DNA of 64,000 bases from a virus, in the IMG/VR virus record IMGVR_UViG_3300047554_000685, positions 15,363-79,362 of that record; one strand, written 5' to 3'. The first letter of the stretch is position 1, and every line of letters starts with the position of its first letter. Below are positions 16,913-37,171 of this stretch, one piece after another. Both the position numbers and the translations under genes were made by a program. The notes below the pieces were generated by a model. The model did not search any database, was not told the DNA's origin, and was given only the letters and a program-made list of their open reading frames with translations.

Positions 16913-17540
16913 TGACCGAGGAATTTGCAGAAGGGGGGTACTATGCTATATTGATCGCTAGGTGCTTTTGGCGGGTGAGACGGCAGTTGTTGATCTGAGG
17001 CCGCCCCGAAATTGTTTCCTAAAAGTAGGGGGTATCGGGTCTTCGTTCGATGTATGCCTTTTTCTTTTTATTTTCTAATTTTTTCCTTTTTCCAAACTTG
17101 CTAATCAAAAAAAGACTATGTGCCTATGTCTAAGGGGGGGGGTCAAAAGTCTAAAAACTAGGTCATAACTTCTAATCATTTTTTATGTGTTTTTGTGTGT
17201 CTTTGTGTGTTGTTATGTATACGAAACTTCTTACGAAACTTTGGGGGTCATTCTAAGTTTGCCTAGGGGCTAACAACCTATCAACGAAACCAAGGCTAGG
17301 GGTCTAGGGGGTTAGCCTAATCCTGGCGAGCCAAGGCGAACTTCTGTCAAGTTTCCAAGCTTTCATTTCGATCAAAATTGGTCTTGTGTGTTTGTGAATG
17401 TGTGTCTAGTCAAGACTTGCGCCAACAAAATTAAAAACACTTTCCCGGGCGCATAAACCGCGAGCGCGAATCAACCAACAACTAGCCAACAACCAACTAA
17501 CGGTAACGGCAAGCTGCGAGCAACTTTGACGGCAACGGCA
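16913..17540. other. Low-complexity non-coding region, candidate genome end / terminal-repeat boundary
   Basis: No credible ORF; T-tracts, G9 run, TGTG runs; marks the switch between structural operon and cassette array. Confidence 0.4.
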
Positions 17541-17573
17541 AAAGAAAACCCCCTAGGGGGCTAGGGGGCTTTC
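17541..17573 (-). terminator. Intrinsic terminator (example of the cassette family)
   Basis: GC-rich hairpin CCCCCTAG/CTAGGGGG followed on the minus strand by TTTTCTTTT. Confidence 0.8.
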
Positions 17574-17591
17574 GGTTTACCGCTTTGGGGG

Positions 17592-17825
17592 TTAGCGGTA
17601 AGTCTTTGCTAGGCGGTATCCGTATGCCTTCACCGCGAGCGCGGTAATCACCGCAACCGCGCTAACCGCAAGAATAATCGGGTAAGCAACTTCACCGAAT
17701 CGGCTTAGGTCATTAGCCATTGACAACCCGTAATAATCCGCGCTAACAAAAACGGCAACAGCAATCGCGCCATAAATAACCGCGCTAAGGGTTGCTTGCG
17801 CCTTCTCAAACTTTGTAATGTTCAT
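17592..17825 (-). CDS. Small two-TM membrane protein
   Basis: Own promoter, RBS and terminator. Confidence 0.75.
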   Translation of the reverse strand: MNITKFEKAQATLSAVIYGAIAVAVFVSADYYGLSMANDLSRFGEVAYPIILAVSAVAVITALAVKAYGYRLAKTYR

Positions 17826-17981
17826 TTCATTTCCCTTTCGTTTTGCTAGGCGGTATCACCTAACACTTCTAATTTACCAACCCTAAACCATTTGTCAAGG
17901 GTTTCCGCAAACATTTTTTCGAGCGTGTCGCGGTAAAGAAAAACCCCTAGCCACAATCGGCTAGGGGCTTTCCGTAAGTTG

Positions 17982-18221
17982 TTAGAGACTTGTCTCAAAC
18001 TTTTCTTCGGCAACCAAAACATCGTTTCCGTTTTCATCGCGGTAAGCGAATCCACGAACTACAACGCTAACGCCCGCGCGTGGTGTCGAGTAAAAGTCTA
18101 CAATCGAGCGAAACTTTTCTTCGCCGTAAGTCTCATAGACATAGGTCATTGTCTGGCCATCTTCGTAAGTAACTTCGGCTACGGTTGTTACGATGGTCTT
18201 TGTGGTGTCTACTACTAGCAT
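17982..18221 (-). CDS. Hypothetical protein
   Basis: Own promoter, RBS and terminator. Confidence 0.75.
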   Translation of the reverse strand: MLVVDTTKTIVTTVAEVTYEDGQTMTYVYETYGEEKFRSIVDFYSTPRAGVSVVVRGFAYRDENGNDVLVAEEKFETSL

Positions 18222-18425
18222 TTCATTTCCCTTTCGTTTTCATAAACCTTTTGGCTTATGTAATAAGCATACTGTATCTAAGCAACTTGTCAAGTCAATT
18301 CCAAAACTTTTTTCCTGGCGCGTCGTTTCGATCAAAATTGTTTGCCACCGCGAGCGCGTGTCCACCTAATCACCGCAAAAGAAAACCCCCATCCCTTTCG
18401 GGCTAGGGGCTTTCTCGCTTTCCCT

Positions 18426-18728
18426 TTACTTCGTGGTAAGGGTCAAAACATCGGTGAACTTCACCAAGGCTTCGTATGCTTCTGGGTAAGTTGCTTCGAA
18501 CTCTTCCCAATCGTTTACCGAACGGCGAACACTCTCAACAACTTCGGCGATTACTTCGCCAGTCTTTGGGTCTGCGATTACGGTTGCGGTGTTGCCAGTT
18601 TCTGCCAAGACAACTTTACGAATCGCGCTCTCGCGGTTTGCTAGGTCTGCCTTTGCCTTCTTCACATCAACCAATTCGGCGATTAGTGAAACTAGGTCTA
18701 CTGCTACGGTTGCGGTCTTTGCGGTCAT
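18426..18728 (-). CDS. Hypothetical protein, paralog of 24207-24506; resembles a stand-alone YqaJ C-terminal-like coiled-coil domain
   Basis: Shares RRS.NDW..FEATYPEAYEALVKFTDVLTL with the paralog. Confidence 0.75.
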   Translation of the reverse strand: MTAKTATVAVDLVSLIAELVDVKKAKADLANRESAIRKVVLAETGNTATVIADPKTGEVIAEVVESVRRSVNDWEEFEATYPEAYEALVKFTDVLTLTTK

Positions 18729-19264
18729 TTCATTTCCCTTTCGTTTTTTGTATCTAAGCCTTTTGGCTTATGAAATAAGCATAAGCGGTATTTTTTCTTT
18801 TGTCAAGTCAATTCGAGAAAATTTTTATAACAGGTTTATAACGGTAAATTGGCAGTCAACCCGGCAGACTGCTAACCAACTTCCAACCAAGGCCGCGAGC
18901 GCGAGCTGCTTCTAACCCGGGTCTTTCCGGTTGCGAGCTGCTTCTGGTCCGGCAAACTTTCAACGAATAGCCCGGCTAGGTCCGGCAGGTAGCCCGGCGC
19001 GAGCTGCGCCTTTCCGGTATCAGTCCGGCCGATGAGCTGCCAACTTCCAACCAATTAGCCGCGTCAAGCTGCGAACAAACCCGGCTATTCCGGTGAACAA
19101 CCCGGCTAGGTCCGGCGTATGAGCTGCTAACAAACCCGGCGCGAGCTGCCAAAAACTTCGGTCGATCGACCAACAAGCTGCGAGCAATTTCGATCAAAAT
19201 TAGAAACCGCGAGCGCGTAAAAAAGAAAACCCCCGCTTTCGCGAGGGCTTTCCATTTCTTCGGG

Positions 19265-19435
19265 CTAAAAGTTTTCGTTTACCCATTCGAGCATTTCTTC
19301 GTAGGTTGCGCCGTCAACATACATTTTGGCAAGGTCTTCGTTTTCTGCGAGCAACCAAGCGTCTACGGTTGTTTCTGCCGACAAGCGCATTAGCAAGTGT
19401 CGAACAGTGTTTGCGGTCTTTGCGTCTAGTGCCAT
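19265..19435 (-). CDS. Hypothetical protein (56 aa)
   Basis: Start MALDAK follows GAAAGGGAAA RBS. Confidence 0.7.
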   Translation of the reverse strand: MALDAKTANTVRHLLMRLSAETTVDAWLLAENEDLAKMYVDGATYEEMLEWVNENF

Positions 19436-19547
19436 TTTGTTTCCCTTTCGTCTTTCGGCTTTCTGCCGATAAGTCAAGTATGGCAGACTTCCAACGAAAA
19501 CACAACAACCGCCACATTGGGCGGTTGCGTGTCGCGAGCGTGTCGCG

Positions 19548-19973
19548 CTAGAACAAGTCTTCGTCTTCTTCTTCGGCAACTTCAAAAGTAAACTCACCAG
19601 TGCCAACTGGCTCATCGTGAGAGTAGCGAACAGCGGTAAGCGTCTTCGCGCCTTCTGTAATCTTGAACCTTAGTGTCCAATCGCCATTGATAGACAACTT
19701 CTCAACAAGCGTCTTCGGTGTCGCGTAAGCGTATCCGCTCAAGCGTTGCCAAGTCATTCCACTTCCGCGAATGATTAGGTTAGTGTCTTCATCGTAGCCA
19801 TTGGCTTCCATCCAAGGCTTGATAACTTCATACCACAAGTTGCTAACTTCATCGTCATAGCAACCCCAACACTCATTGCTAGGCGATGACGTTTCAGTCT
19901 CTTCATCGTAGTCTTCGCAAATACAAGAATTGGTAATCTCGAATGTTTCGAATTCGGTTGATACAGTTTCCAT
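19548..19973 (-). CDS. Hypothetical acidic protein
   Basis: RBS and promoter upstream; CxC and CxxC motifs. Confidence 0.75.
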   Translation of the reverse strand: METVSTEFETFEITNSCICEDYDEETETSSPSNECWGCYDDEVSNLWYEVIKPWMEANGYDEDTNLIIRGSGMTWQRLSGYAYATPKTLVEKLSINGDWTLRFKITEGAKTLTAVRYSHDEPVGTGEFTFEVAEEEDEDLF

Positions 19974-20219
19974 TTTGTTTCCCTTTCTTTATCGCCTTTC
20001 GGCTAATCCAAGTATCCCGCGTTTCTCATAAAAAGTCAAGCAACTTCCAACGAATGTTTTCGAGTTGCGAGCTGCGCGGATCGATCGACCATTGGCCAGG
20101 GCCGGTGCCGCGAGCGCGTTTTTGATCAAAATCCGCGAGCGCGAGCTTTCCGAATCTAGGCGTGATAAAAGGCCAGTTTAGAGACTTAGCCTAGGTCTTT
20201 TTTCGTAGGGAAACGAAAC

Positions 20220-20591
20220 TTAGTGAGAGTGTTCCATTGCTTTCAGAACAACTTCCATAATCTTATCAGTTTGTTCACTAGTGAGAGTTTCAATCTCACC
20301 ATCGTAGTCTTCGCCACCAGTGATTAGAACATTGCCAACGATGAAATCAGTCTGTCCGTATGAGTCTTCCCAAATAGCCGTAGCCAACTCATTTAGCGGA
20401 AGGTCTGAAAACTTACCTTCTTCGTTTAGCCACATTGACAAGCCACTTAGTGAACCTGCCAACGGAACAACCTGAACCCAACCCCCAACGAATGTTTGTA
20501 AAAATTCGAGCGAGATTACTTCGTGAGTTTCGTCCCCAAAAACAAATCCGCCGTCTTCATTGGTGCGAATTGCGAATACCTTTGTAGTCAT
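20220..20591 (-). CDS. DUF3846-like protein
   Basis: LEFLQTFVGGWVQVV...NEEGK...N.LAT...IVGNVLITG. Confidence 0.8.
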   Translation of the reverse strand: MTTKVFAIRTNEDGGFVFGDETHEVISLEFLQTFVGGWVQVVPLAGSLSGLSMWLNEEGKFSDLPLNELATAIWEDSYGQTDFIVGNVLITGGEDYDGEIETLTSEQTDKIMEVVLKAMEHSH

Positions 20592-20804
20592 TTTGTTTCC
20601 CTTTCGTAAGTGCTAGAACCCCTAGCAATTTCTAGTTTAGCGTTTTGCGATAAAAAGTCAAATCAATTTCTTGACATCCATAGACAACCAACAGCTGCGA
20701 GCAATAGTAGTCCTGGCACGATCGAATTTGGATAACCAATAGCGAAACCCATAATAAAAATAAAACCTAACCCAACGGCAAGGCCACGCCAAATAATCGC
20801 AAAC

Positions 20805-21011
20805 TCAGAATTGCGCCTTGACACTTTGCCACCACTTCCAAATCGCGGTTAGAGGCTTGCGCTCTTGACGACGGCGACCGTGGCGACCACCTTTGACATA
20901 CGACTTATGCGCGAGCGTCTGCGTAACGTGAAAAGTCCGAAACGCTACTGAACCAATTGCGCGCCAAAACTTCTCCATAAAACGGTGATACCTAATCACG
21001 ACTAACTCCAC
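20805..21011 (-). CDS. Hypothetical basic protein
   Basis: Last gene of a three-gene cassette. Confidence 0.5.
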   Translation of the reverse strand: MELVVIRYHRFMEKFWRAIGSVAFRTFHVTQTLAHKSYVKGGRHGRRRQERKPLTAIWKWWQSVKAQF

Positions 21012-21226
21012 TTCCGAATTGTAATTGTGCGACCAACGAACTCAACATCCAACGCGATACCAGTTTCATTCACGACTTCAAATTCCATTCCGTCAAAAAT
21101 TGAAAACAATTCTGGCTTTGCGTCATACTCCGCGAGCGCGCCAAACACTTCAAGCGCGGTCTTGCGTGCGTTCATAATTTCTTTGCGCCTTTGGTAGCGA
21201 CTTACGCTTTCGAGATTACTGCCCAT
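21002..21226 (-). CDS. Hypothetical protein
   Basis: Overlapping operon arrangement. Confidence 0.55.
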   Translation of the reverse strand: MGSNLESVSRYQRRKEIMNARKTALEVFGALAEYDAKPELFSIFDGMEFEVVNETGIALDVEFVGRTITIRKWS

Positions 21227-21351
21227 TTTTTTGCCCTTTCTTCTTTACACTCTACACAAATTTGACGGCTAGTGTAGGTGCCAATCCAAGCGACCCTAAT
21301 CGCTTTACCACATTCCCAACAACCAATCCAAATCGTATCTTGCTTTGACAT
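21202..21351 (-). CDS. Small Zn-ribbon protein
   Basis: CWECG...CVEC; start MSKQD after RBS. Confidence 0.65.
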   Translation of the reverse strand: MSKQDTIWIGCWECGKAIRVAWIGTYTSRQICVECKEERAKKWAVISKA

Positions 21352-21534
21352 TTGGTTTCCCCTTTCTAGGTAATTCCAGATTAGCCTAGTTTGTATAATC
21401 GCGCAACAACCAAACTTCCGCGTGTCAAGCTTGACCGCGAGCGCGGATCGACCATCGATCAAAATCAGCTGCGACCGGCCAGGCTAGATAAAGAAAAAGG
21501 GTGACCACCGGCCACCCTATCTCCACGAATCTGA

Positions 21535-21675
21535 TTACTTGAACATTCGTAATTGTTCAGCAAACCAATCGTCAAAATCTCCATCGCAACTTTCACACAA
21601 CGGATGAACTTGACCAACGAATGCTTCAATCTCGGTTTCGCATTTGTAGCAAGTTGTAGTTTCTTTGGTTTCCAT
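21535..21675 (-). CDS. Small Zn-ribbon protein
   Basis: CYKC...LCESC; RBS upstream. Confidence 0.65.
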   Translation of the reverse strand: METKETTTCYKCETEIEAFVGQVHPLCESCDGDFDDWFAEQLRMFK

Positions 21676-21697
21676 CGTTTCCCTTTCCACTTCCATT

Positions 21698-21907
21698 CTA
21701 CAAGCCCAACTGAACTTTTGTGCCGAACTCTGTGATAATTTCATCGAATCCATCTTGCTCAAGAACTTCAGCGAAATCCATTCCCGTATAGTCTTCGATG
21801 CGCTCAATCAAATCGGGCGACAGGTTATCTGTGTCAAGAACATAGACAGGGTGCTCATTGTGATACTGCCACCAATCACCATTTACATTCGCAACATACT
21901 TAGCCAT
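21698..21907 (-). CDS. Hypothetical acidic protein
   Basis: TAATG coupling with upstream gene. Confidence 0.65.
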   Translation of the reverse strand: MAKYVANVNGDWWQYHNEHPVYVLDTDNLSPDLIERIEDYTGMDFAEVLEQDGFDEIITEFGTKVQLGL

Positions 21908-22122
21908 TATGCGCTCCACGCTCCCCAATCCAAATCACTTGCTTCACGCTGTGAATCTGACCAAGCGGTTTCTCCATAGAAATACTTGACCTTGCCACTT
22001 TCTTTGTTTGTCATACGCCAGTAGTCTTCTGCGAATACTGCTGTGCCAGTTGCCAACTCCACGACTTTGCTATCGTAGATAACTTCCCAACTCTTTACTA
22101 ATGAAACGCTAGGCTTTGCCAT
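21907..22122 (-). CDS. Hypothetical protein
   Basis: AAGGAG RBS; KYFYGETAWSD motif. Confidence 0.7.
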   Translation of the reverse strand: MAKPSVSLVKSWEVIYDSKVVELATGTAVFAEDYWRMTNKESGKVKYFYGETAWSDSQREASDLDWGAWSA

Positions 22123-22411
22123 TGTCGTTTCTCCTTTCCCTATGCTCCAAGATTACACTAGTCCTGCGACAAACGCAAACAACTTCGAATGAATCCGCGA
22201 GCGCGTTTCGATCAAAATTAGCTGCGTCAAGCTCCGGTCCGGCCAGGGCAGCTCTGATCGATCACCGCGAGCGCGGCCATAATCCAGACAAAAGAAAAAC
22301 GGTAGCAATTGGGGGGAATTGCTACCGCTCTCTTTGCGAAAGGTGAAAGGGGGATAACTCCTTTCGCTATTCCTTAGGCGAGTAATCTCGAGCCTAAGCA
22401 ACTCTTCTAGT

Positions 22412-22759
22412 TTACACAGAATTGTCTTTCAGCGCAAATTCTGTATTCACTTCACCTTGATACTCGTATTCGCCATTGTCTGCGTTTACGGTAATTGTGT
22501 CATTGTCCACCCAAGCAGAACCTTCTTCGTATCCATAGGCGTCGATACCGAAAGACAACTTACCTTCGTATCCACCGAGCGCGACCGCGAACTCATAGAA
22601 AATCTGCGCGGTGAGATAGTTCACATCGCCGATTCGGTCTGTGCGTGCGAGCACATTGCGAACTGCCACCAAGTTATCTCCACCCGACCAGTGTCCATAA
22701 AGTGTAATCGGCGCTTTGAAATTCTTGCTATTGATTACGATTAGCGACCTGTCTCCCAT
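22412..22759 (-). CDS. Conserved phage protein (MGxRS...LY.HW.G family)
   Basis: TAATG coupling; related to 24724-25248. Confidence 0.7.
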   Translation of the reverse strand: MGDRSLIVINSKNFKAPITLYGHWSGGDNLVAVRNVLARTDRIGDVNYLTAQIFYEFAVALGGYEGKLSFGIDAYGYEEGSAWVDNDTITVNADNGEYEYQGEVNTEFALKDNSV

Positions 22760-22968
22760 TATGCCACCGCCACCCATTTGACAGCGGTGCGTAGCAAGTT
22801 GTCATAATCGCCACTTGTGCTCTCGGCGTAGTATTCGTCAATTTCTTCTTTTGAAACTCCAGCGTCTTTCAGCGCGCTAGCAACACGACCCATAATCGCG
22901 AAAGCATTTCCATCTTCCCCGACCAACTGAACTTGAACATCTGGATACTTCGGCTCTCCAAAACTCAT
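22759..22968 (-). CDS. Conserved phage protein (GEDGNAFAIMG...SGDYDNLL)
   Basis: Recognisable small phage family motif; RBS and promoter. Confidence 0.8.
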   Translation of the reverse strand: MSFGEPKYPDVQVQLVGEDGNAFAIMGRVASALKDAGVSKEEIDEYYAESTSGDYDNLLRTAVKWVAVA

Positions 22969-23127
22969 TTTTCTTTCCCTACTTTCCTAGGCAATTTGCC
23001 TAATACAAAGATACTGTATTTTGCTTTTTAGCGCAACTTCAAACGAACACTAATTTTGTGTCTTGTGATCGATCGACCAGGGCGACTGGTTTCGATCCGC
23101 GAGCGCGGCCGTAGCCGAGCTCACCCC

Positions 23128-23523
23128 CTAGTCTTCGTCTTCTTCGTCTTCGTCTTCGTAGTCATTACAAACACCAGCGCAACCGCGCTCACCACAATCT
23201 TCGCAATCTTCTTCTTCGAATTGCCCGATTAGAGTTTCGAAACCTTCGTTAGCATCCACACCTTCTGGCATAGTAGAGACCGCGCTCACAAAACGTAGCC
23301 CACAACTTTCTTCATACCAGTGCTTGACTTTCTCCAACATCTTGTCCGCGCTCATTGCGTATTTGGTGATAAGACCTTCTGTATCAGTCCCATCCCCATA
23401 GCCATACTCGCGCATAAGCGAGACTTGCTCATCGTCCATAAGCACGTAAATCTTGTGGCAAGTGTCCCAAGCAATCGCCTTGGCGTCTACCAATCGTTCT
23501 TCAACCAAATCAAAGTTTGTCAT
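23128..23523 (-). CDS. Hypothetical acidic protein
   Basis: WDTCHKIY...WYEESCGLRF; RBS and promoter. Confidence 0.75.
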   Translation of the reverse strand: MTNFDLVEERLVDAKAIAWDTCHKIYVLMDDEQVSLMREYGYGDGTDTEGLITKYAMSADKMLEKVKHWYEESCGLRFVSAVSTMPEGVDANEGFETLIGQFEEEDCEDCGERGCAGVCNDYEDEDEEDED

Positions 23524-23832
23524 TTCATTTCCCTTTCTTTTTAGGCTTTTTGCCTACCTAAAAGATACCGCATTTTAGGACAACACGCAACATCCAACGA
23601 ACATTTTTTTTCGTGTCTTGATCGATCGACCAGCTCCCAAGTCATCTAACTTCCAACGAATTAGTTGCGGCTTGTTAGATCTGGATCACCGGTAATCACC
23701 TGGCTAGATCTCCCTGGTCCGGCCCCGGCGATCAGATCAATCTAAGCTGCGTGATCAGCTGCGCCATAGATCTAGATCAGCTCCGGTCCGGGTAAAAAGA
23801 AACCCTGGCCGAAGCCAGGGCTCTTTGTATGA

Positions 23833-23889
23833 CTACCGGTTTGGGCAGTCTCCATGGTCATGGCCACAGCATGGAAAGTCTTCGCACAT
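23833..23889 (-). CDS. 18-aa Cys/His-rich microprotein MCEDFPCCGHDHGDCPNR
   Basis: Only ORF between a TTGACA-N17-TAAGTT promoter with purine-rich RBS and the terminator at 23794-23825. Confidence 0.6.
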   Translation of the reverse strand: MCEDFPCCGHDHGDCPNR

Positions 23890-24206
23890 CTTGCACCCCC
23901 TATCTCCCTTTCTAACTCCAAACTTACCACCCAACCCAAAACGTGTCAAGTCTATTTTGATAACAGATTGATAACACTCGCGAGCTGCTTCGAGCTGCGA
24001 CTGAGCTGCGCCAGCTCCGGTAAAACTTCCAACGAGCTGCGACTAAGCTGCAATGCCAGCTGCTGCGATTCGCTTCATAACTTCTAACGAACAACCACAC
24101 CCATTCGATCCGGCTCCGGTCCAGGCAAGCCCGGCGGATCGACCAACAACCGAGCAAGACGAAACCCCCCAGTCTTTCGACTGAGGGGGCTTGCGACCTC
24201 CCGACC

Positions 24207-24506
24207 CTACTTCTTTTTGAGAGTGTTGAGGGTTAGAACATCAGTGAACTTGACCAGTGCCTCATAAGCCTCTGGATAGGTTGCCTCAAAGTCGTCCCAA
24301 TCGTTGATTGAGCGACGGGTGCTTTCCACGACCTCGGCGATAATCACGCCAGCCTTGTCAGCAATCTCAACAGCAGTGTTGCCAGTCGCTCCAAGAACCG
24401 ACTTGCGAATTACGCTCTCACGAGCAGATAGTTCAGCCTTTGCTTCACGAACCTCAATGAGTTCGTCAATCAGGGCTACAACATCAACGACAACAGCCTT
24501 AGCCAT
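24207..24506 (-). CDS. Hypothetical protein, paralog of 18426-18728
   Basis: Clear amino-acid similarity; start MAKAVV after GAAAGGA. Confidence 0.75.
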   Translation of the reverse strand: MAKAVVVDVVALIDELIEVREAKAELSARESVIRKSVLGATGNTAVEIADKAGVIIAEVVESTRRSINDWDDFEATYPEAYEALVKFTDVLTLNTLKKK

Positions 24507-24723
24507 TTTCGTCCTTTCCCTAGAAATCAAGCCAACCTTGTGTTCGCTTGTAATACCAAGCCTAGTCTGCTACTTTTCGCAAGTCAAGCCCAAACAGCAT
24601 TATTTTTATAACAGGTTTATAACGGAAATTTTTAATCTGATCGATCAGCTGCAACCAGCGATCGCCAGGATCTCGGGCAAAAGAAAACCCCCACATTTCT
24701 GCGGGGGCAATCTTTTGTAGCGA

Positions 24724-26213: not shown

Positions 26214-26417
26214 CTAGTCTTTTGCTAGACGCTTCGTGTTCAAAAGGTCTAACGCATCTAGATAGTATTTCCTATCGTCATCTTCAATCCACTCGTTTGC
26301 GTCTGTGTCCCAAACTTGCTCATCTTCACTAAACCGCGCCGAATAAGTATCATCTGCGATAAAAACTTCTTTGTCATCTAAATCAACGCCAATGACAAAA
26401 AATACCTGCTTGCTCAA
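26214..26417 (-). CDS. Hypothetical acidic protein
   Basis: TTG start after GAGG, downstream of HicA-like gene. Confidence 0.6.
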   Translation of the reverse strand: MSKQVFFVIGVDLDDKEVFIADDTYSARFSEDEQVWDTDANEWIEDDDRKYYLDALDLLNTKRLAKD

Positions 26418-26418
26418 T

Positions 26419-26625
26419 CTATTTCCTCTCAATCGTGATTCCGTGTCGGCGAAGTTCCGACACTAGGTTTTTGACGGCACGCCCGTCTGACGGCGTAGAC
26501 GCGGAAAAAACTATTTGCCCACTTGGCGAAGTCCACTTCAAGTGTCCACCACCAGTTAGAGTAACGACCCAGCCCTTAGACTCGGCGACCTTGACTATCT
26601 GCTTGAATTCTTTTCTGTTCGACAT
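26419..26625 (-). CDS. HicA-like protein (dsRBD fold)
   Basis: AESKGWVV.LTGGGHLKW.SP.G...TPSD.R; leaderless start 6 nt after TACATT. Confidence 0.75.
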   Translation of the reverse strand: MSNRKEFKQIVKVAESKGWVVTLTGGGHLKWTSPSGQIVFSASTPSDGRAVKNLVSELRRHGITIERK

Positions 26626-26791
26626 ACTTCAAATGTAGCACCACCCACTGACATTTTCAACGACACGCCTAAAACTTTTTTCGAGCTTCGATCCCTGCAG
26701 CTTACCACCGGCACCACCGCGGATCGACCAACGCCTGGAAATAAGTGGCGAGCAGTTTTACAACTTGCTCAGGTTGGGTGTGGCTTCGAGG

Positions 26792-27181
26792 CTAAACGAG
26801 TTCGTCCTCAGGCTCAGCCTCGCGAACCAAGACCGTACGAGTGAAAACCGAAGTTCCCCAAGTCAAGTCATGCCCCATTGAAGTCGCCTCAACCTCAACC
26901 GAGGTTCCCGAACGCTCACCGTTATCCCAATCGCGAACGCGAAGTGTGCCAGTGACGGTGATACGGTCGCCCTTGTTCACCGAGCCAGCGACATTGATAG
27001 CAAGTTGCTTGAACGCGGTAATGGTGAACCAGTTGGTCTCACCGTCTACCCACTTGTTTTGCTCGCGGTCAAACTTGCGGTATGAACTTGCGAGACGGAA
27101 TGAAGTAATCGGCAGGCCGTCCTGAGTTACGAGGTGGCGAGGTGTTGTGGCAACTAGGCCAGTGACAGATACAGTTTCCAT
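26792..27181 (-). CDS. ssb: Single-stranded DNA-binding protein (actinobacterial type, short C-tail)
   Basis: FRLAS..RKFDRE..KWVDGETNWFT...LA.NV..SV.KGD...V.G.LR.R.W. Confidence 0.9.
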   Translation of the reverse strand: METVSVTGLVATTPRHLVTQDGLPITSFRLASSYRKFDREQNKWVDGETNWFTITAFKQLAINVAGSVNKGDRITVTGTLRVRDWDNGERSGTSVEVEATSMGHDLTWGTSVFTRTVLVREAEPEDELV

Positions 27182-27416
27182 TGTTTCCCTTTGATAGTTT
27201 CCAAGTGAACTTTTGTCCACCCTTGGATTTTAGCATAGCGAGCCGACATTACGCAACTTCCCACGAGAGCCTTTTTTCGTTGGAAGTTCCGACGGTAGCC
27301 CCCGCCTGGATCGACCAAACCGCGAGCGCGAAATCCATTGATCCGGTTCAGCTGCAACCACGCCAAACAAGAAACCCCCGCCCGACGGCGAGGGTTCTTG
27401 CTTTTTAGGGAAACGA

Positions 27417-27890
27417 CTACCAACTGGATTGGTATTCGAAATCGTAATCCTTCAGACTTTCCGAAGTCAAAAGGTGGTTCAGCATTTCGGCGGTGTACTT
27501 CACGCCTTCGTAGTACCACTCATCAAGGTCAGTACTTCCGAAGAAGAAACCACTCTGTGGTGGTAGCAACTCATCAGCCTTCGTGGCATCAGCCAATACA
27601 GTCTGGCACGCCTCAAGAAGTTCAGCCAGTTGCTCACGAGATACCCAAGCCTTCTGGCACTCATCACGACCACCCTGAACATTCTGAACAAACCAGTTGT
27701 GAATGGCGTTCGCCTTGCGCCAGTACCCCACGCTAATTTCAATGGTGGCACTTGGGTTGCCATACTCCAAGTCTGACTTGGTCAAGCCACTAGCAGATAG
27801 CACTTCAGCGTACGCCTGCTTCTCTGGCTCTTTGTTGAAATCGTAGCCACTCACATACTTGCGAGCAGATAGATACATATCTAGTCCCAT
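27417..27890 (-). CDS. Conserved phage protein (MGLDMYL...YWRKANAIHNWF)
   Basis: Family motifs including LP.QSGFFFGS and terminal YQSSW. Confidence 0.85.
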   Translation of the reverse strand: MGLDMYLSARKYVSGYDFNKEPEKQAYAEVLSASGLTKSDLEYGNPSATIEISVGYWRKANAIHNWFVQNVQGGRDECQKAWVSREQLAELLEACQTVLADATKADELLPPQSGFFFGSTDLDEWYYEGVKYTAEMLNHLLTSESLKDYDFEYQSSW

Positions 27891-27965
27891 TGGACTTCCC
27901 TTTCCCTACGCCCTACTCTTTTTCAGGCACGCCACCAGTTTACACTAAGTCAGCAAAAATACAAA

Positions 27966-28268
27966 CTATTTGGCGAAAGTTTTTTGACCTAGATCGACCA
28001 GCAGCTCCTCAACAGTATCTGGAATCTGATACCCACCAACCAAGATCCCGGCACGAATAATCATTTCTCCGGTGCTAAGTGATAGAGCTGCGGCCCAGGA
28101 CGATACAACTTCGGAAGAAGCTTCTTTCTGTCCACGCTCAAGCTCACTAAGGTATCCGAGTGCCATCTTCGCACTAGCTGCAACTTGGCGTAGAGTCAAG
28201 CCTTGATCGATCCGTTCCTCGCGAGCAATGTGTCCAAGGGCTTCGCGGTAAAGAATTTCATTTTTCAT
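27966..28268 (-). CDS. ClgR-like XRE HTH transcriptional regulator
   Basis: REALG...R..R..QG.TLR.VA..A..ALGYLSE.ERG.KEASSE; leaderless behind TTGACG-N17-TACGCT. Confidence 0.8.
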   Translation of the reverse strand: MKNEILYREALGHIAREERIDQGLTLRQVAASAKMALGYLSELERGQKEASSEVVSSWAAALSLSTGEMIIRAGILVGGYQIPDTVEELLVDLGQKTFAK

Positions 28269-28354
28269 ACGATCAGCGTAGTGCACGCACGCCTATCCGT
28301 CAAACAAAAAACACCAGCAGCTCTCTCGCTACTGGTGCTTTCTGTCCGTTAGGG

Positions 28355-29212
28355 CTAGGCAACCTCGGTCAAGGTTGGATAGACACGCACGCCGTCTTCT
28401 TCAACCCACGCCACGCTATCCTCACTAATCCGCACGCCGTTTGGTTGTTCGGCATTAGTGAAGTTTTCCAGCACGCCGTTCGCAATCTCCCACGCCGATT
28501 CAGCCGACTTCGCCGTAATCCGAATTACTTGCCGAACTACAACCTCGAACTCCTTTTCGGGACGAGGGCAGTCGTCATACCAATACTCGTCGTCGTCAGG
28601 GTCGCTCGCACAATTACAGGAATCTTCCCTGTCCCTGTCCACATAATCTTGGTGGCTGTCGGGGATGTCCCATTCCTTAGTCATAATCAAGGAACGCTCG
28701 CCCTCCTCGTCGCCGTCCGAAGAAGTGAACTCCGCACCCCAGCCCTGCTCTTCCTCACTCCAAAAGTCGAAGTCCAGCGTTGGGAACTTCCGAACAATCG
28801 CATTGAAGACTGGCTCGGGAATACTCCACGCCGTATTGAACGAATAGCCCAGCGAGGTTTCGCTGTCGTCATTCAAGTCAGCGTCGCAAGCGTCCCACTT
28901 AGTTCCCCACTCACGAACATTCCAGTCATACCAACCATTCGACGAGAACTTCATTGAGTAAGCGAGTTGTTCCTCTGAAGTCATTTTGTCGTAGCCCTCT
29001 GGCTTGTAGTCGCTTGCCCCGAAGTAGAGTGCCTTGTCCTCTGGCTCAACAAAATTCCAGAACGAGAACACCTCCTCCTTGTCGTCGTAAGTTAGCGAAC
29101 CAGTTTGGCTGTCGAATCCAGTTGGTGCTTTTCGTCCTGCCAGTTCCTTGAACTCAGCAATCTTTTCCTTTGAACCTGAAACGCTCAGGGTGTTGTAAAC
29201 CCAGTTTGGCAT
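28355..29212 (-). CDS. DUF1281/YubB ferredoxin-like domain protein
   Basis: MPNWVYN...WYDWNVREWGTKWD...FNTAWS.P. Confidence 0.8.
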   Translation of the reverse strand: MPNWVYNTLSVSGSKEKIAEFKELAGRKAPTGFDSQTGSLTYDDKEEVFSFWNFVEPEDKALYFGASDYKPEGYDKMTSEEQLAYSMKFSSNGWYDWNVREWGTKWDACDADLNDDSETSLGYSFNTAWSIPEPVFNAIVRKFPTLDFDFWSEEEQGWGAEFTSSDGDEEGERSLIMTKEWDIPDSHQDYVDRDREDSCNCASDPDDDEYWYDDCPRPEKEFEVVVRQVIRITAKSAESAWEIANGVLENFTNAEQPNGVRISEDSVAWVEEDGVRVYPTLTEVA

Positions 29213-29214
29213 TT

Positions 29215-29502
29215 TTAGTTCTCCTCTCCAGTTAGGTTGTGTTCCTCAATCAAGTTGTCAATGGTTAGACCAGCGTGAATCTTCACGCTCTCTAGGTGAA
29301 TGGTTAGTTCTTCGTTTCCAAACTTGCGTGCCAGCATACAAGCAAGTTCCAACGAACGATACATCAGTGGGTCAGCGTATCCTTGCTCGCAGTAGTTCTC
29401 GACAAGAACACCAAGAGCAGTCAAGGCGATACCAGCAATCTGGTGGTCGTCCAAGTCCATACCCTCGATTTGGTTTTCTAGGTTTTCGCAGTTATCGCAC
29501 AT
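29215..29502 (-). CDS. Hypothetical protein
   Basis: Start MCDNC after GAAAGGGAAA. Confidence 0.7.
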   Translation of the reverse strand: MCDNCENLENQIEGMDLDDHQIAGIALTALGVLVENYCEQGYADPLMYRSLELACMLARKFGNEELTIHLESVKIHAGLTIDNLIEEHNLTGEEN

Positions 29503-29625
29503 TGGTCGTTTCCCTTTCTCTAGCGATAATTCGATTGTAGCAGAGTATTGCGACAAAACAAACACATTCATTGGAAGTTTCGTGGCAGCTTTCGCCAGGT
29601 CCGGCGCAGCTTGTGATCGATCGAT

Positions 29626-29865
29626 CTAGTCTTCTTGGTCAAAAGCTTCTCGGCGAACTTGGTTCATCTCGAGATCGTCTTCGATACATAGGCAGGTATC
29701 ACATAGGAAATACCCCAAGTAGTTGTAGTTCCAGTGAGTAACAACGGCCGCGCAATCTACGCACCGGACTGATTCCCCGGGCGCACCGCAGACGTGGATA
29801 GTGTCATCATTTTCGATCCCGTAGAACAACTCAACGAAATCATCTTCATTCAGTTCTTCATTCAT
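29626..29865 (-). CDS. Small Cys-rich hypothetical protein
   Basis: Leaderless-type start after TACGCT; CxxC pairs. Confidence 0.6.
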   Translation of the reverse strand: MNEELNEDDFVELFYGIENDDTIHVCGAPGESVRCVDCAAVVTHWNYNYLGYFLCDTCLCIEDDLEMNQVRREAFDQED

Positions 29866-30078
29866 GATCCCTAGCGTATCCGCTAACCCTGACATTTCCC
29901 GGGCGATCGATCAGCAGCTTTTCTCGCGCACGCCAGCACGCCACCGTCAGTCCGGGCAAAACGAAATCCCTACCAGCGGGGGAACTGATAGGGATTTCTA
30001 ATCCGTTAGCGGAGAGCGATTTTGGAAAGGGGGAAACGAGTTTGCTCAATCCGCTAACGGACTTCTTAGGCACGCCGA

Positions 30079-31869
30079 TTACACGCCACCCCCGATTTTC
30101 GCGAGAGCGTCAGACGCAGACTTGCCGATTGAGAGCGCGATACTTTCGACTTCCATTCCGTCAAGGTGAACCGCGTGAGTTCCGCGCACAATCTCTTGCG
30201 CGCCGATTGAGTGGCACGCCTTTGGCGTAATGAACAGAACAGCCACGCCAGCCAGTTCGCACTCTTTGATAATCCGCTTTGCGTTTTCGGTTTCTTTCGA
30301 AACATAGTTTCCGTCCGATACAACAACCAACAAACGCACGCCGTCCGAGTAAGTCAGACCGAGCGCGCCATTGAGAGCCGAGAACCCCTTGTCAAAAACT
30401 TCGGTGCTATCTGGCGCAGACCAGACCGAAACTTCTTCCAATTTCTGCCCGACTTTGAGTGTCGCGAAAACATCTTCACCGAAATAGACCATAGCGGTTT
30501 TCGCCTGAACCCTACGACCAGCCTCGCTAAGAACCCAAGCAGTTGTCGCCATAGCGTCCATAGCCGAACCCATAGAACCACTAATGTCCACCATTACGCC
30601 AATGGTCAGCGTTGGGTCGTCAGTGTGTTTGCGCGACTTTGACTTCCAAGCAGGGAGTTCGCCACGCAATCCCATTGACTTCATAGCACTATTCTGAACA
30701 GCGTTGCGAGTGTTGAGTTTGCCAAGTGGCGCGTGAGTTTTGCGAATGTGAACTGAACGCTCACGATACTTCGCCTTGTCCAACATCTCAGCAATCTTGA
30801 CAGCACTCGCGCGCTCACCAGATTTTGGCGCACGCTTTTCGCGAAGTGAAGAACGCGACTTAGTTCCAGTAGAACCCTCTTCGCGCTTTTCGAAAACGAC
30901 CTCTGAAACTTTGCGCTCTTCGCTCTTCTTCTTACTCTGGTCAGCGCGACCCTTTGCCTCTTCTGCCCACTCTTCGCCAGTCTGTTGGTCAGTCAAGTCA
31001 ATCGAAACAGCAATCGCAGTTCCACCAGCGTCCTCTTCCAAGTCCTCTTTGGTCGCGAGAACAAAAGCAATTCCAGCACCCTCGCCACTCTCGCCCTCTG
31101 GGTCAGCCTCGCGCAAAATCTCAACCCACTCGCGAGCCAAGTCAAGACCAGCGACAGTCGCGCCATTCGCGAGCGCGTGGAAACGCACCCAGACAGAACG
31201 CAACTTGTCAAACAACTCTTGACCAAGAACATCAAGCGCACGCTCATAAATCTTTTCGACATCTGCCAGACCAAGAACGCCAGCGTCCACGCGAGCGAGA
31301 GCAAGTCCAGCCATTTGCGCCATTACGCGAACCTCGCTCACCTTTGCCAATCCCTCTTCGTCAATCTCACCAAGAGCAAGACCAAGAGCAGACGCACGCA
31401 GGAAGAGCCTATTCTTTGGGTAAATCAAAACGCCAATGCGCTCAATGCGACTTTCTTCTAGCAACCAAAAAGCGTCAAGAACATTTTGGTTTCCAGCCTT
31501 ATGCTCAACTTCGAAGAGCGAGTAATCCCACTTGTCAGAAGAGCGAGCGTGAAGAGCCTCGTGATAAATCACGCCAGTTGGTTCTGCCCAATCGTATTGA
31601 GTTTCGCGAAGTGTGAAGTCGCCAACCATTTCTGGCGTGGTCGCGTTTCCAAACGCACCAGCCAAGTTGATTTCGATTTCAGCAGTAGAGCCAATAAAGC
31701 AAGCAATCGCTTGACCCATACCAGCGTCCTCACCAGCATAGACAGCCAAGTCATTACGACCAGCCCAATCATTCGCGACCTTGCCAATCTGGGCGCAGGT
31801 TGCCAACCATTCCGAGGGAGTGAAACTAGCGCGAGTTGCGAGGCGCGAGTTAGGTGTGAAGTGTGTCAT
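30079..31869 (-). CDS. HExxH + VWA domain protein (CobT-like partner of MoxR AAA+)
   Basis: YHEALH...LEESRIE; MIDAS VDISGSM; VVSDG. Confidence 0.85.
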   Translation of the reverse strand: MTHFTPNSRLATRASFTPSEWLATCAQIGKVANDWAGRNDLAVYAGEDAGMGQAIACFIGSTAEIEINLAGAFGNATTPEMVGDFTLRETQYDWAEPTGVIYHEALHARSSDKWDYSLFEVEHKAGNQNVLDAFWLLEESRIERIGVLIYPKNRLFLRASALGLALGEIDEEGLAKVSEVRVMAQMAGLALARVDAGVLGLADVEKIYERALDVLGQELFDKLRSVWVRFHALANGATVAGLDLAREWVEILREADPEGESGEGAGIAFVLATKEDLEEDAGGTAIAVSIDLTDQQTGEEWAEEAKGRADQSKKKSEERKVSEVVFEKREEGSTGTKSRSSLREKRAPKSGERASAVKIAEMLDKAKYRERSVHIRKTHAPLGKLNTRNAVQNSAMKSMGLRGELPAWKSKSRKHTDDPTLTIGVMVDISGSMGSAMDAMATTAWVLSEAGRRVQAKTAMVYFGEDVFATLKVGQKLEEVSVWSAPDSTEVFDKGFSALNGALGLTYSDGVRLLVVVSDGNYVSKETENAKRIIKECELAGVAVLFITPKACHSIGAQEIVRGTHAVHLDGMEVESIALSIGKSASDALAKIGGGV

Positions 31870-32112
31870 TTCCAGTCCTTTCCAAAACTGATTACCTATC
31901 TAGGATAGCACTTTTCGATTGTCGCGCAACCCCCATTCGCAGAAAAAATCCAGTGATCCTGGCGCAGCTATTTCCGGCCATAAGTTCCCGGGAGCTTTTC
32001 CCGGGCAGTGATCGATCAGTGGCAAAGCTGCAGACGATCGAAACGCACTATCCCCGAAAAAGCAAAAGTGCCAGATTTCTCTGGCACTTCGCTTTTCAGT
32101 TTCGGACGGAAA

Positions 32113-33129
32113 CTAAATCTTCGCAGGACGACATTCTTCACCAAAGACGCGAGTGAAAACATCTGCCACAACTGGGCGGTCAAGTTCTGGCGCACTCGCG
32201 AGCAAGTTTGAGATTGCGAACTTAGTTCCAAACACTTCGCTGATTGACTTGTATGCCAACAGTTCGCGCATTTGTGGCGACCAAGAAGTTTCGCCATTCG
32301 CTTGCTTTTTCGCGAGGTTCTGGGCAACTGAAACAGCAGACGCAGGAACGCCCAACTTCTTTGCCAATGCCCAGTCAGTAGTCATTTCTGCCTGAATGGA
32401 AAAGCGTGAGAGCAACGCCTCGCTTAGGCGAACTCCGGGCGCATTGGGGTTTGTCGCGCCAATCACATAAAAGCCGTCCTTTGCTTTTACAGTTCCGCGC
32501 TCTGGGTTCGCAGTGATTACGATTTCTTTGCGTCCGTCCATAAGACCATAGACAGCCGAAAGAACCTTTGGGTCAATCAGACCAATCTCGTCAATCAAAA
32601 GAACTTTGCCCTCTTCGGCAGACTTGACCAAAACGCCGTCCACCCATTCGAAAGCACCACTTGGAGTTTGGACATAGCCACCAATGAAGTCCGAAAGTTC
32701 GGTGTCGCCTGAACCCAAGATTGTGTAAAGTTCATCTGGGAACGCGCCCTCAACGAGAGCAGTTTTGCCAGTTCCGGGCGCACCATACAAAAGGACATAC
32801 TGATTGTTTGAGCGTGCTTTGCGAAGAACCTCGACATCTGAATGGTCGCCCCAAGAGCGAGAGAAATAAAAGTCGCCATTCGGACGCTGATACTTCTCAG
32901 CACCCTCAATAGTTTCTACGCTCACAGTTGCCTTTGCCTTTGGTTTTGGAGTTCCAGTTCCAATCTTAGCGCGAAGATTTGCGCGTCCACTTTTCGGCAT
33001 TAGCGAAGATAGACCAGCAGGAACTTTGGTTTCATCTTCACCCTGAACAGCAACGCCGAAAATTAGCGAGGTGAGTTCTGGGTAAATTGCGTCCACGACT
33101 TCTTCGTGGGTTTTGGTTTCGATAGTCAT
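32113..33129 (-). CDS. MoxR/CobS/NirQ-type AAA+ ATPase
   Basis: GAPGTGKT, LLIDEI, GATNP, LSEALLSRF. Confidence 0.9.
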   Translation of the reverse strand: MTIETKTHEEVVDAIYPELTSLIFGVAVQGEDETKVPAGLSSLMPKSGRANLRAKIGTGTPKPKAKATVSVETIEGAEKYQRPNGDFYFSRSWGDHSDVEVLRKARSNNQYVLLYGAPGTGKTALVEGAFPDELYTILGSGDTELSDFIGGYVQTPSGAFEWVDGVLVKSAEEGKVLLIDEIGLIDPKVLSAVYGLMDGRKEIVITANPERGTVKAKDGFYVIGATNPNAPGVRLSEALLSRFSIQAEMTTDWALAKKLGVPASAVSVAQNLAKKQANGETSWSPQMRELLAYKSISEVFGTKFAISNLLASAPELDRPVVADVFTRVFGEECRPAKI

Positions 33130-33156
33130 TTTAGTTTTCCGTCCTTTTCGATTTCC

Positions 33157-33663
33157 CTAGTAAAGGTTTTCTGGGTAGCCAACTTCGGCGCGCGCTTTGG
33201 TAATTCGGCGCAACGCAGACGCAGGTGCTTTCCAAGCACTAATGTCAGTGAAATCAACATCAGTTAGTTCGAACACGATTGGTCGTGGTCGTGGTGTAAA
33301 TCCCTCTGGGAACATACGCGCAGTGATTTCGCTCGCACGCGAACCAAGTTCGACAGCCTTGTCAATAGGCGACATAGCGTCAAACTCTTTCGGAGTGCGA
33401 ACAAAGTTAGTGCGCCATTGAGCGCGAGGTGTGAAACTACTAATGGTGCGATAGATAACAGCCATACTTACGACTTCGCCCTTTTCGTTTTTACCACTTG
33501 GGGTAATCAGAACTTGGGTGGTTCGTGCGTATGAGTTAGTTGCGTGCGCCTCTAAATAAATGCCCATTCCCATTAGGCGAGGCTTGTTGCTTACCTCTTC
33601 GTGCGAAGTGGCAAGTGCGTCAGCAATTTCGGAAGATACTTCCCCGAATGTTGTTGGGTTCAC
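33157..33663 (-). CDS. Hypothetical protein
   Basis: GTG start after GAAAGG; first gene of the AAA cassette. Confidence 0.7.
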   Translation of the reverse strand: MNPTTFGEVSSEIADALATSHEEVSNKPRLMGMGIYLEAHATNSYARTTQVLITPSGKNEKGEVVSMAVIYRTISSFTPRAQWRTNFVRTPKEFDAMSPIDKAVELGSRASEITARMFPEGFTPRPRPIVFELTDVDFTDISAWKAPASALRRITKARAEVGYPENLY

Positions 33664-33791
33664 TTTCGTGCCTTTCCAATTAGTTGAGTGTCGTTTTCCC
33701 GACAAGAGCAACTTTACACGAAGTCGCGACAAAAGCGCAACTCTTCCAACAAAGATTTTTTATTTATTTTTCCCGGGCGATCGATCAGCAG

Positions 33792-34082
33792 CTAGTCGTC
33801 GTCGAGATCGTCGAAAGTTAGGGGATCAAGATCTTCGTCTAAGAAGGGGTTAGCAGGGGTCGAGCTAATCGCATCTTGGGCACAGTCCAAGCAAACTATC
33901 CACTGAGTACTTTCATCGAGTCCTATTAGATATGCATAGAAGGTGCCATTAGATTGGCCCACGTCTTCAGTGCAGCTGATGCATGCAATGTCAGCTAAAT
34001 CCTCGGGGGTAACTAGTCCAGCCACTATGGCCATACCAGCATCGACTTCGTCTTCTATTAAGTGGAGTTCAATTGCTCTCAT
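33792..34082 (-). CDS. Hypothetical Cys-containing acidic protein
   Basis: Short leader after TACGAT. Confidence 0.6.
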   Translation of the reverse strand: MRAIELHLIEDEVDAGMAIVAGLVTPEDLADIACISCTEDVGQSNGTFYAYLIGLDESTQWIVCLDCAQDAISSTPANPFLDEDLDPLTFDDLDDD

Positions 34083-37153: not shown

Positions 37154-37171
37154 GAGTGAATTATATCTCAT

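Follow-up and report, generated by a model that had tools for sequence, protein, structure and literature searches.

The first-step-transfer DNA of phage T5 has no EcoRI sites, and sites placed there are cut, whereas sites elsewhere in the genome are shielded by a pre-early function (10.1101/866236). According to its abstract, a study of T7-like phages (Autographiviridae) facing Type I restriction-modification (R-M) found that only motifs in the leading region decide sensitivity (PMC12455610), and another abstract describes a test for depletion of short palindromes in the leading regions of conjugative plasmids (10.1101/2025.04.03.647016). Here we consider a 64,000-nucleotide stretch of viral DNA (hereafter the window), which is part of the 79,362-bp IMG/VR record IMGVR_UViG_3300047554_000685 (CheckV completeness 47%). 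Per-kb profiles of the window reveal a single compositional island at 17400-33800 on the minus strand, a predicted early arm of ~20 transcription units and 31 genes, in which the genes have been purged of eleven four-base palindromes and the spacers between units are packed with several of the same words. We suggest that the island is a restriction-proofed early arm with cis-acting binding or methylation boxes in its spacers, a combined reading to which we give a probability of roughly 0.45.

Like the pre-early region of T5/BF23, the island is a minority block of its genome (8% in T5, 13% here) with small, presumably host-takeover genes that are read by the host polymerase (as judged here from the sequence), it is without restriction sites that the rest of the genome has, and its non-coding stretches are rich in repeats and palindromes. 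Unlike the T5 region, it is present at single depth and is not a terminal repeat; eleven four-base words are purged rather than a few six-base sites; and repeats lie between every unit rather than at one injection-stop locus. The T5 pre-early annotations (A1, A2, dmp) are not among the PHROG matches of 20 island proteins, a comparison in which those families were not searched directly. The T7-like phage and plasmid cases differ, as their abstracts present them, in dealing with a single Type I motif or with a depletion that is statistical and mild, and in neither abstract is there mention of the same words being enriched between genes. With the genome-wide palindrome avoidance of many phages the island shares a depletion of 4-mer palindromes beyond codon usage, but in the present genome only one island shows the avoidance, its edges defined to within a few hundred bases, and in the spacers three words go the opposite way. 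What is unusual is this confinement to a single sharply bounded island, together with the word-packed spacers; palindrome avoidance itself is already known.

We grouped the words at issue into class A palindromes (ACGT, ATAT, CATG, GTAC, TATA, TGCA and TTAA), class B (GATC, AGCT, CCGG and GGCC, plus CCWGG and GCWGC) and class C palindromes (CGCG, GCGC, TCGA, AATT and CTAG). The coding sequence (CDS) of the island was taken as 31 curated minus-strand genes totalling 11,556 bp, which leaves a non-coding remainder of 4,845 bp. Against composition-based expectations for these genes, every class A and class B word is scarce: GATC (8 observed, 45 expected), AGCT (7, 45), CCGG (6, 41), GGCC (7, 41), CCWGG (2, 21), GCWGC (4, 21), TGCA (2, 45), GTAC (6, 45), CATG (4, 45), ACGT (5, 45), TTAA (0, 50), ATAT (1, 50) and TATA (1, 50). 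A preliminary description of this DNA had reported no GATC or AGCT in the cassette genes; the strong depletion is borne out by the counts, the complete absence is not. It had also singled out one gene as free of the listed words and the structural genes as using them freely, and both observations hold. The gene in question, a 596-aa CobT/VWA-like gene (30079-31869), is free of all 11 purged words and contains 52 copies of CGCG and GCGC together, and in the structural region all of these words occur at ordinary rates.

The purge covers 11 of the 16 four-base palindromes, namely class A and the class B 4-mers, and its specificity for palindromes is pronounced. When the 136 strand-symmetrised 4-mers are ranked by depletion in island genes relative to the rest of the genome, palindromes fill the first 11 places and a gap separates them from the first non-palindrome; by our own arithmetic, the chance of an all-palindrome top 11 is about 1e-12. 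A strand-specific analysis gives the same top ranks. The clear strand-specific losses among non-palindromes are the Shine-Dalgarno-like words AGGA, GGAG and GAGG, with a few other words mildly depleted; strand-specific avoidance of ATC in island mRNA was not seen (101 copies, 130 expected). Nor does the purge follow from codon choice. Synonymous-codon shuffles that keep the proteins and the island codon usage give z scores of -3.3 to -7.8 for the purged words; in 500 shuffles, counts as low as, or lower than, those observed arose for CCGG alone among the 11 words, and the pooled shuffle expects 12-43 copies of each purged word. Class C words are not purged from the genes, and CGCG and GCGC occur at about three times their frequency in the rest of the genome (82-86 observed, with 62-66 expected from the shuffles). 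Part of this excess stems from the shift in island codon usage, where TTA, ATA and AGA are lower and CGC, GCG, TCG and TTG higher than in the late genes.

The edges of the island, placed from the positions of class A words, lie at ~17.2-17.4 kb and 33.8-33.9 kb, and per-kb word counts change sharply at about 17.4 and 33.8 kb. The island region is present at 82-91% nucleotide identity in three IMG/VR contigs from other samples, and metagenome runs of six freshwater or aquatic studies carry 70-97% of words sampled from a 9.9-kb stretch. An IMG/VR pattern scan for the early ribosome-binding site (RBS) gave multiple matches only in the same three relatives. The partitioning between genes and spacers recurs in relatives. 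The 136,298-bp assembly of one close relative, G001, closes as a circle through a 127-bp overlap of its ends; there the island is a single block at 46-64 kb, 13% of the 136-kb genome. No such island is found in the 42 kb examined of Actinomycetia phage DSL-LC01 or in the 30 kb examined of Microbacterium phage Big4.

We compared the window with two relatives (L002 and L003) over 7-8 kb of gap-free aligned genes, in which 10.7% of positions differ. Only 15-18 purged words per genome are found in each aligned pair (17-18 in the relatives), whereas the same substitutions placed at random matching sites would create 133-144 (standard deviation 10-12). The purge is thus maintained by selection in diverged lineages, and this deficit excludes a fading relic of foreign origin. 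More generally, it is barely credible that the island is a relic or an artefact, whether imported from a genome-wide avoider of words, assembled from end-joining scars, or engineered or misassembled. Such an origin would draw on three observations: purges of many palindromes along whole contigs do exist, the layout resembles a refactored synthetic cluster, and GATCGATC, a word frequent in the spacers, is the product expected when a GATC cut is filled in and rejoined. Against it stand the active maintenance of the purge in situ and the presence of the island in three independent IMG/VR contigs and the runs of six studies, from which we conclude that the sequence is natural and that engineered or recoded DNA can be dismissed. 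Fill-in scars were rejected as well, since relatives show no 4-bp indel polymorphism between GATC and GATCGATC and other fill-in products are rare (CCGCGG 2, GCAGCAGC 1).

Purges of many words turned up in a few of 186 five-kb windows taken from unrelated viral contigs. One such contig, the unrelated 14-kb L012 (IMGVR_UViG_3300032312_000854), is for most of its length without ACGT, AGCT, CATG, CCGG, GATC, GGCC and GTAC. Avoiding several words at once is thus nothing unique, and the unusual part of the present case is its confinement to a sharply bounded block. We note also that the entire 42 kb of DSL-LC01 (L004) is without TTAA and ATAT, or nearly without them, and the entire 30 kb of Big4 (L098) likewise without TTAA, which hints that TTAA- and ATAT-directed restriction is common in the host group.

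The gene purge very probably means that Type II restriction targets are avoided, and avoided in the DNA of the early arm only; the earlier suggestion of restriction avoidance is strengthened by the palindrome specificity of the depletion and by its maintenance under divergence. In this model the island would be an early arm transcribed by the host polymerase, and the purge would be restricted to DNA that must work before phage counter-defences exist, by the same logic as in the T5 first-step-transfer region and in T7-type leading regions. Since any cut is fatal to a single-copy genome, purging just one block makes sense only if no other part of the genome meets restriction enzymes without protection. 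We infer that island DNA would enter the cell, or be exposed there, first.

The spacers show the converse pattern for some of the words. Relative to dinucleotide shuffles of the non-coding island DNA, GATC (54 observed, 14 expected, z +11.9), AGCT (45, 21, z +5.3) and CCGG (44, 21, z +5.7) are enriched 2-4 fold, whereas GGCC is not (z -1.1). TTAA, ACGT, GTAC and ATAT are clearly depleted in the spacers as well, CATG and TGCA are weakly low, TATA is not depleted, and class C words are tolerated. The preliminary description had the spacers packed with the very words that the genes lack. This stands for GATC, AGCT and CCGG; it fails for GGCC, which is not enriched, and for GTAC, which like TTAA, ATAT and ACGT is purged from both compartments, with CATG and TGCA leaning the same way. 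Purge and enrichment exceed what base composition and codon usage would produce, under the composition, codon-shuffle and dinucleotide-shuffle nulls alike.

Along the coding strand, a spacer runs from a stem-loop terminator with a T run through a GC-rich core and a promoter to GAAAGGGAAA and the start codon, and core and promoter are in many cases separated by an A tract plus a TTCGTTGGAAGTT-like element. The cores are 20-105 bp long, with two large arrays reaching 335 and 521 bp; sixteen cores hold 155 class B 4-mers in 1,645 bp, and most spacers contain several different site types. In the core between the AAA and VWA units (31955-32039) we find CGATCG, GCAGCT, GATCGATC, two copies of CCCGGG, GGCCGG, AGCTGC and CCAGG; in alignments with relatives its terminator and promoter are conserved, and the core between them is variable yet still site-rich. 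Another core, at 20070-20174, carries two copies of GCGCTCGCGG together with GATCGATC, GCAGCT and CCGGCCCTGGCC. The larger non-coding array at 23620-24140 has 36 class B 4-mers, with six GCAGCT at intervals of 10-12 or 31 bp and a cluster of ten GATC, and the second, at 18861-19195, is a decayed tandem array of 14 CCGG and 8 GCAGCT, the latter spaced 22-33 (or 55-66) bp apart. The remaining cores lie at 21428-21513, 22210-22278, 23067-23121, 24639-24672, 25336-25408, 25759-25809, 26170-26199, 26684-26725, 27309-27353, 29587-29622, 29899-29955 and 33773-33793, all of them, like those above, on the minus strand. Twelve spacer clusters had been listed before and all are present, with four more at 18861-19195, 23620-24140, 27309-27353 and 31955-32039. 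The spacers share words of at most 28 nt, and the sole long repeat is a paralogous gene pair; a single duplicated repeat, named at the outset as an explanation that would count against the earlier reading, is thereby rejected. Folding of 12 cores as DNA gave z scores from -2.65 to +1.26, with no consistent signal for hairpins or cruciforms.

The sites are not scattered in arbitrary contexts but recur within longer words. GATC lies in CGATC in 41 of 55 cases (as part of TCGATC or GATCGATC), compared with 19% elsewhere in the genome, and 35 of 45 AGCT lie in GCAGCT or AGCTGC. All 15 copies of GATCGATC in the 79-kb record fall at 20,079-34,148, in or at the island and about one per spacer; in G001, 12 of 12 copies fall within 16 kb of the 136 kb, and the reversed control word is absent (0 copies). 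In relatives the copies of GATCGATC occupy orthologous places, with point changes only. The 10-mer GCGCTCGCGG has 13 copies at 17458-27329, all on the coding strand (minus) and all inside the island, and in G001 all seven copies are likewise in the island and on the coding strand (52597-63281); this polarity would suit a Chi-like or nick-site role. Spacings of GCAGCT up to 45 bp are all 10-12, 22 or 31-33 bp, corresponding to whole helical turns (multiples of ~10.7 bp). Overall, a given spacer word has one or a few copies per gap, mostly in the same orientation.

These features bear on the proposal that the spacers are sacrificial or decoy sites, in which host enzymes would cut, or be held, only between units, so that the units stay expressible or the enzymes are titrated. 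The modular layout and the variety of site types in most spacers would suit it, each unit having its own promoter, RBS and terminator (as the preliminary description had it, although several cassettes are operons of 2-4 genes rather than single genes). However, the island is single-copy, and any cut would still destroy the genome; the sites belong to particular longer words and not to a variety of contexts; GGCC is not enriched; and most class A words (TTAA, ACGT, GTAC, ATAT) are depleted from the spacers too. Type II enzymes, moreover, turn over, so that sites cannot titrate them. Generic decoys of this kind, which had been put forward at the outset, are contradicted by the island-specific longer words, the phased GCAGCT and the single copy of the island, and we now consider them very unlikely.

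The exceptions to the gene purge are instructive in this context, as 28 of the 34 class B sites remaining in genes sit in three atypical genes. An XRE-type helix-turn-helix (HTH) gene (28268-27966; Pfam HTH_3, 5e-08) occupies a spacer position, following a terminator and running into the next promoter with no spacer of its own; it carries 16 class B sites including one GATCGATC, and this internal copy is kept in three relatives. A gene for a small membrane protein (20824-20663) has 5 class B sites, all at its 3' end, and abuts the next promoter. Where the third (29895-29626, 7 class B sites) lies, L002 has a site-rich spacer of 131 bp. Because the first two carry the words within coding DNA, the requirement for them appears to follow position, upstream of a promoter, and not coding status.

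We suggest that the spacer words are putative boxes for sequence-specific DNA-binding proteins, an identification that is plausible but that we hold at somewhat less than even odds. Boxes would fit the word specificity, the recurrence once per spacer, the orientation, the helical phasing, the conservation and the dependence on position. Their vocabulary, between the terminator and the next promoter, would comprise TGATCGATCA, TGGTCGATCC, GCAGCT, GCCGGA/CCCGGG, CCWGG and GCGCTCGCGG, and they might act as regulators or insulators of the early units, with the island XRE protein as a candidate reader of GATCGATC. Boxes of this type would survive the purge as functional elements and possibly also because they are masked by bound protein or by methylation. 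Among the closest analogues are the stoperators of Cluster A mycobacteriophages, asymmetric 13-bp sites that are read by the immunity repressor. Like stoperators, the spacer words are short, lie in many short intergenic gaps of one region and have a regulator gene nearby; unlike them, they are of several kinds, mostly palindromic, and located 11-85 bp upstream of promoters.

Several observations weigh against a restriction-proofed early arm with binding boxes. Public contigs bridge both edges of the island, and in Logan contigs the depth inside and outside it is nearly equal (10.2 and 10.5 in X3; 21.1 and 21.9 in X9), a comparison that rests on assembled contigs, just as G001 is a circular assembly. 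This equality of depth rules out a collapsed long terminal repeat of the T5 type. Boxes of 6-10 bp would by themselves leave the purge of the 4-bp cores GATC, AGCT, CCGG and GGCC unexplained, and restriction pressure on these cores should fall on the spacer copies too, unless they are masked or the enzymes are rare. Finally, the distance between GATCGATC and the promoter element varies from 11 to 85 bp and keeps to no fixed register, and part of the GCAGCT phasing may stem from a decayed tandem duplication of ~32 bp.

The cores evolve quickly in comparison with the elements that flank them. Core identity with relatives is 66-80%, with many indels, and terminators and promoters are conserved; class B 4-mers within cores are nevertheless retained at fractions of 0.57-0.71, compared with 0.42-0.55 for neighbouring 4-mers, and site density is 87-118 per kb in relatives versus 99-127 per kb. 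Variant contigs in one deeply sequenced sample have whole cores replaced or cassettes deleted. Breakpoints of cassette gain, loss and replacement fall inside or next to the spacers, in keeping with an early expectation. This is the pattern that would arise if the spacers were recombination joints, their shared words providing microhomology or compatible ends for loss, gain and swapping of cassettes between co-infecting relatives. Where the window and its relatives, or the strains of one metagenome, differ by cassettes, the breaks fall in spacers. The junction CCGGATC|GATC marks the exact end of one replacement, the sequence of one strain variant picks up again at T+GATCGATC (position 22255), and a 25-nt string of words is found at both 33795 and 29925, beside an inserted gene. 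Other breakpoints, however, fall within homologous promoters or in the DNA that separates a promoter from its RBS, and alignments necessarily resume at conserved words, so that such breakpoints are expected in any case. Mosaicism also needs no gene purge, no helical phasing and no one-per-spacer pattern, and we regard joints as a quite improbable purpose of the words.

The phage encodes a possible modifier of these sites, a C5-cytosine DNA methylase gene in two frames (55488-56808, minus strand; Pfam PF00145, 7.5e-36). In a three-frame translation, the N half has motifs I-VIII in one frame, and a second open reading frame contains two 'LPTP' modules and motifs IX-X; Pfam detects the N half only. 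The gene is split at the same place in G001 and G002, making three genomes in all, and could represent a two-subunit enzyme, a programmed frameshift or a conserved break. Directly downstream is an HNH endonuclease gene (55084-55488, minus strand; Pfam PF01844, 5e-06). Phages SPR, phi3T and rho11s of Bacillus encode C5 methylases with combined targets GGCC, CCGG, CCWGG, GCNGC and GAGCTC, and they methylate to protect the whole genome, with no site-free gene blocks. The likeness is that this target set is nearly class B and that the present phage has a predicted C5 methylase with repeated modules; the difference is the site-free gene block of the island, which those phages, protected throughout by methylation, do not have.

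Accordingly, one may ask whether the spacer words are targets of this modular methylase or of host methylases, with methylated patches serving as epigenetic punctuation, for example to tell parental from new DNA or to block a silencer, and with the genes kept free of the words. The split enzyme with its two LPTP modules beside an HNH nuclease, shared by the phage, G001 and G002, is in favour of such a role. To our knowledge, every class B word has a cytosine that is modified by known C5 methylases (M.AluI, M.HpaII, M.HaeIII, Dcm, SPR/phi3T), and we know of no proteins other than those of R-M type that read 4-5-bp palindromes. On the other hand, the closest solved relative of the N half is M.HhaI, whose target is GCGC, one two-module enzyme cannot cover GATC, AGCT, CCGG, CCWGG and GCWGC together, and no N6 or N4 methylase was found in the phage. 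The rest of the genome contains the same words at ordinary density, and methylation would not be confined to the spacers. DSL-LC01 has a C5 methylase yet neither an island nor packed spacers, and possession of a methylase is for that reason not a discriminating correlate of packed spacers. Taken together, these points make methylase targets an unlikely explanation, though one to be kept in view.

Transcription of the island appears to rely on promoters of a host type. Eight promoters of the form TGTCR-N3-N8-TAnnnT, without a -35 box, each lie upstream of a unit (33731, 29894, 29555, 27248, 26653, 26140, 25306 and 22171, minus strand); 8 of the 15 matches to this pattern in the window fall on the island coding strand (22150-33731), and one is a perfect TGTCAGTG-N8-TACATT. 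The consensus of actinobacterial RecA-NDp promoters is tTGTCRgtg-8nt-TAnnnT (PMC5656591), and all eight island promoters fit this architecture, with no -35 hexamer at 17 bp. The lowest units have instead TTGACA-N16/17-TAnnnT promoters (18806-18778, 18293-18266 and 17898-17871, minus strand; 10 of 12 matches each in a consensus scan). According to two studies, PafBC serves RecA-NDp-type promoters by sigma adaptation and is activated by single-stranded DNA (PMC11804915, PMC8635444). We found no WYL-domain regulator among the phage genes. The promoter architecture suggests that immediate-early transcription might proceed through the host's DNA-damage activator, itself activated by single-stranded DNA.

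A more elaborate possibility is that the spacers act as a break-sensing trigger, whereby nicks or cuts there are resected to single-stranded DNA and the host PafBC then fires the RecA-NDp-type promoters of the adjacent units. The fit of eight promoters to the pattern without a -35 box, the reported activation of PafBC by single-stranded DNA with sigma adaptation at such promoters, and the want of a WYL regulator in the phage would all suit this mechanism. It is nonetheless a purely inferential chain. The lower units use ordinary TTGACA promoters and still have word-rich spacers, and a cut genome would be lost all the same; we consider the trigger highly improbable.

One can also picture a two-layer code for the early arm, in which the gene bodies are stripped of every word readable by host R-M proteins and the same words are gathered, as ordered and phased arrays, in the untranscribed gaps, where they would punctuate the ~20 autonomous units. 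Its readers might be methylases, methyl-sensitive or break-sensing factors (possibly linked to PafBC), or phage proteins, and they would time or insulate the units. Such a code is not described in the literature that could be searched, and we think it unlikely in this full form; if it were true, restriction-type words would be used as regulatory signals and not merely avoided. The packed spacers are, in any event, a second and unexplained layer, and if they are boxes for proteins or methylases they would amount to a new regulatory grammar for actinophage early genes.

The scale of the purge, which has removed 11 four-base words from 11.6 kb in one sharp block and is held over 11% divergence, has implications of its own. 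Selection by restriction enzymes would be able to reshape part of a phage genome this far, and the boundary of the purge would be a sequence-only marker of DNA that faces the host undefended. Such a boundary could help to find early or leading regions, and their anti-defence genes, in uncultured phages. The RecA-NDp-type promoters suggest, in addition, that these phages may borrow the host DNA-damage activator for immediate-early transcription.

The island genes themselves are small, with mostly unassigned functions, strong RBSs, host-type promoters and terminators, and despite its natural origin the whole looks like a refactored synthetic cluster. Of the 20 island proteins compared with PHROG, almost all matched families without an assigned function, apart from weak matches of RecE-like and toxin (HicA-like) type. 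The unit upstream of the VWA gene encodes an AAA_5 (CobS/MoxR-like) ATPase (32113-33129; Pfam PF07728, 4e-21) and has no class A words and 2 class B sites. The VWA gene shows a 69% nucleotide match to a 'cobalamin biosynthesis protein' gene of phage DSL-LC01; its product has no Pfam match. An SSB gene is also inside the island (26792-27181; Pfam PF00436, 2e-18), again on the minus strand.

Other features of this region are of a more local kind. At 26214-26625 (minus strand), a leaderless 68-aa gene with the weak PHROG 'toxin' (HicA-like) match is followed by a 67-aa gene with a TTG start, and the two may form a small toxin-antitoxin-like pair. A cassette is duplicated at 18426-18850 and 24207-24631 (minus strand), with genes of 99-100 aa and 73% DNA identity; the proteins weakly resemble the C-terminus of RecE-like exonucleases, and the upstream promoter regions are related, each with a paired GTTATAAA box. 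On the 3' side of the VWA gene (29950-30078, minus strand), a long-range stem, TCCGTTAGCGGA ... TCCGCTAACGGA, encloses a second hairpin and is followed by a terminator; this stem region has no Rfam match. Between the island and the lysis and structural genes is an 800-bp non-coding stretch (16610-17400) with CA-rich runs (CACACAAAGACACACAAAAACACA), repeated CCCCTAG words and a C8 run, which may be an end, packaging or origin region.

The terminase of the window is 74% identical to that of Actinomycetia phage DSL-LC01 and 62-65% identical to the terminases of Microbacterium phages of 186-195 kb. Together with the promoter type, these TerL relatives indicate that the host is probably an actinobacterium of the Microbacteriaceae. 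Elsewhere in the window, the structural region contains tandem ArdC-N and zincin anti-restriction modules (1123-3303, minus strand; Pfam PF08401, 8e-50, and PF18818, 4e-48). A heme oxygenase gene beside the terminase and three 2-oxoglutarate (2OG)-Fe(II) oxygenase genes are found at 13652-14263, 35803-37171 and 53616-54173. The 2OG oxygenase that adjoins a glycosyltransferase is PiuC/prolyl-hydroxylase-like and not TET, and TET-type hypermodification was set aside on this ground. Adjacent genes for a T4 Rnl1-type RNA ligase and a polynucleotide kinase-phosphatase lie at 61193-63404 (minus strand), the classic tRNA-repair pair that counters anticodon nucleases. An Rfam scan found two tRNAs only, with no match inside the island; they are tRNA-Leu(UAA) and tRNA-Met, encoded at 54919-55077 (minus strand). 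TTA makes up 0.03 of the leucine codons in island genes and 0.09 in late genes, a threefold difference, and it looks as if the late genes alone rely on the phage tRNA.

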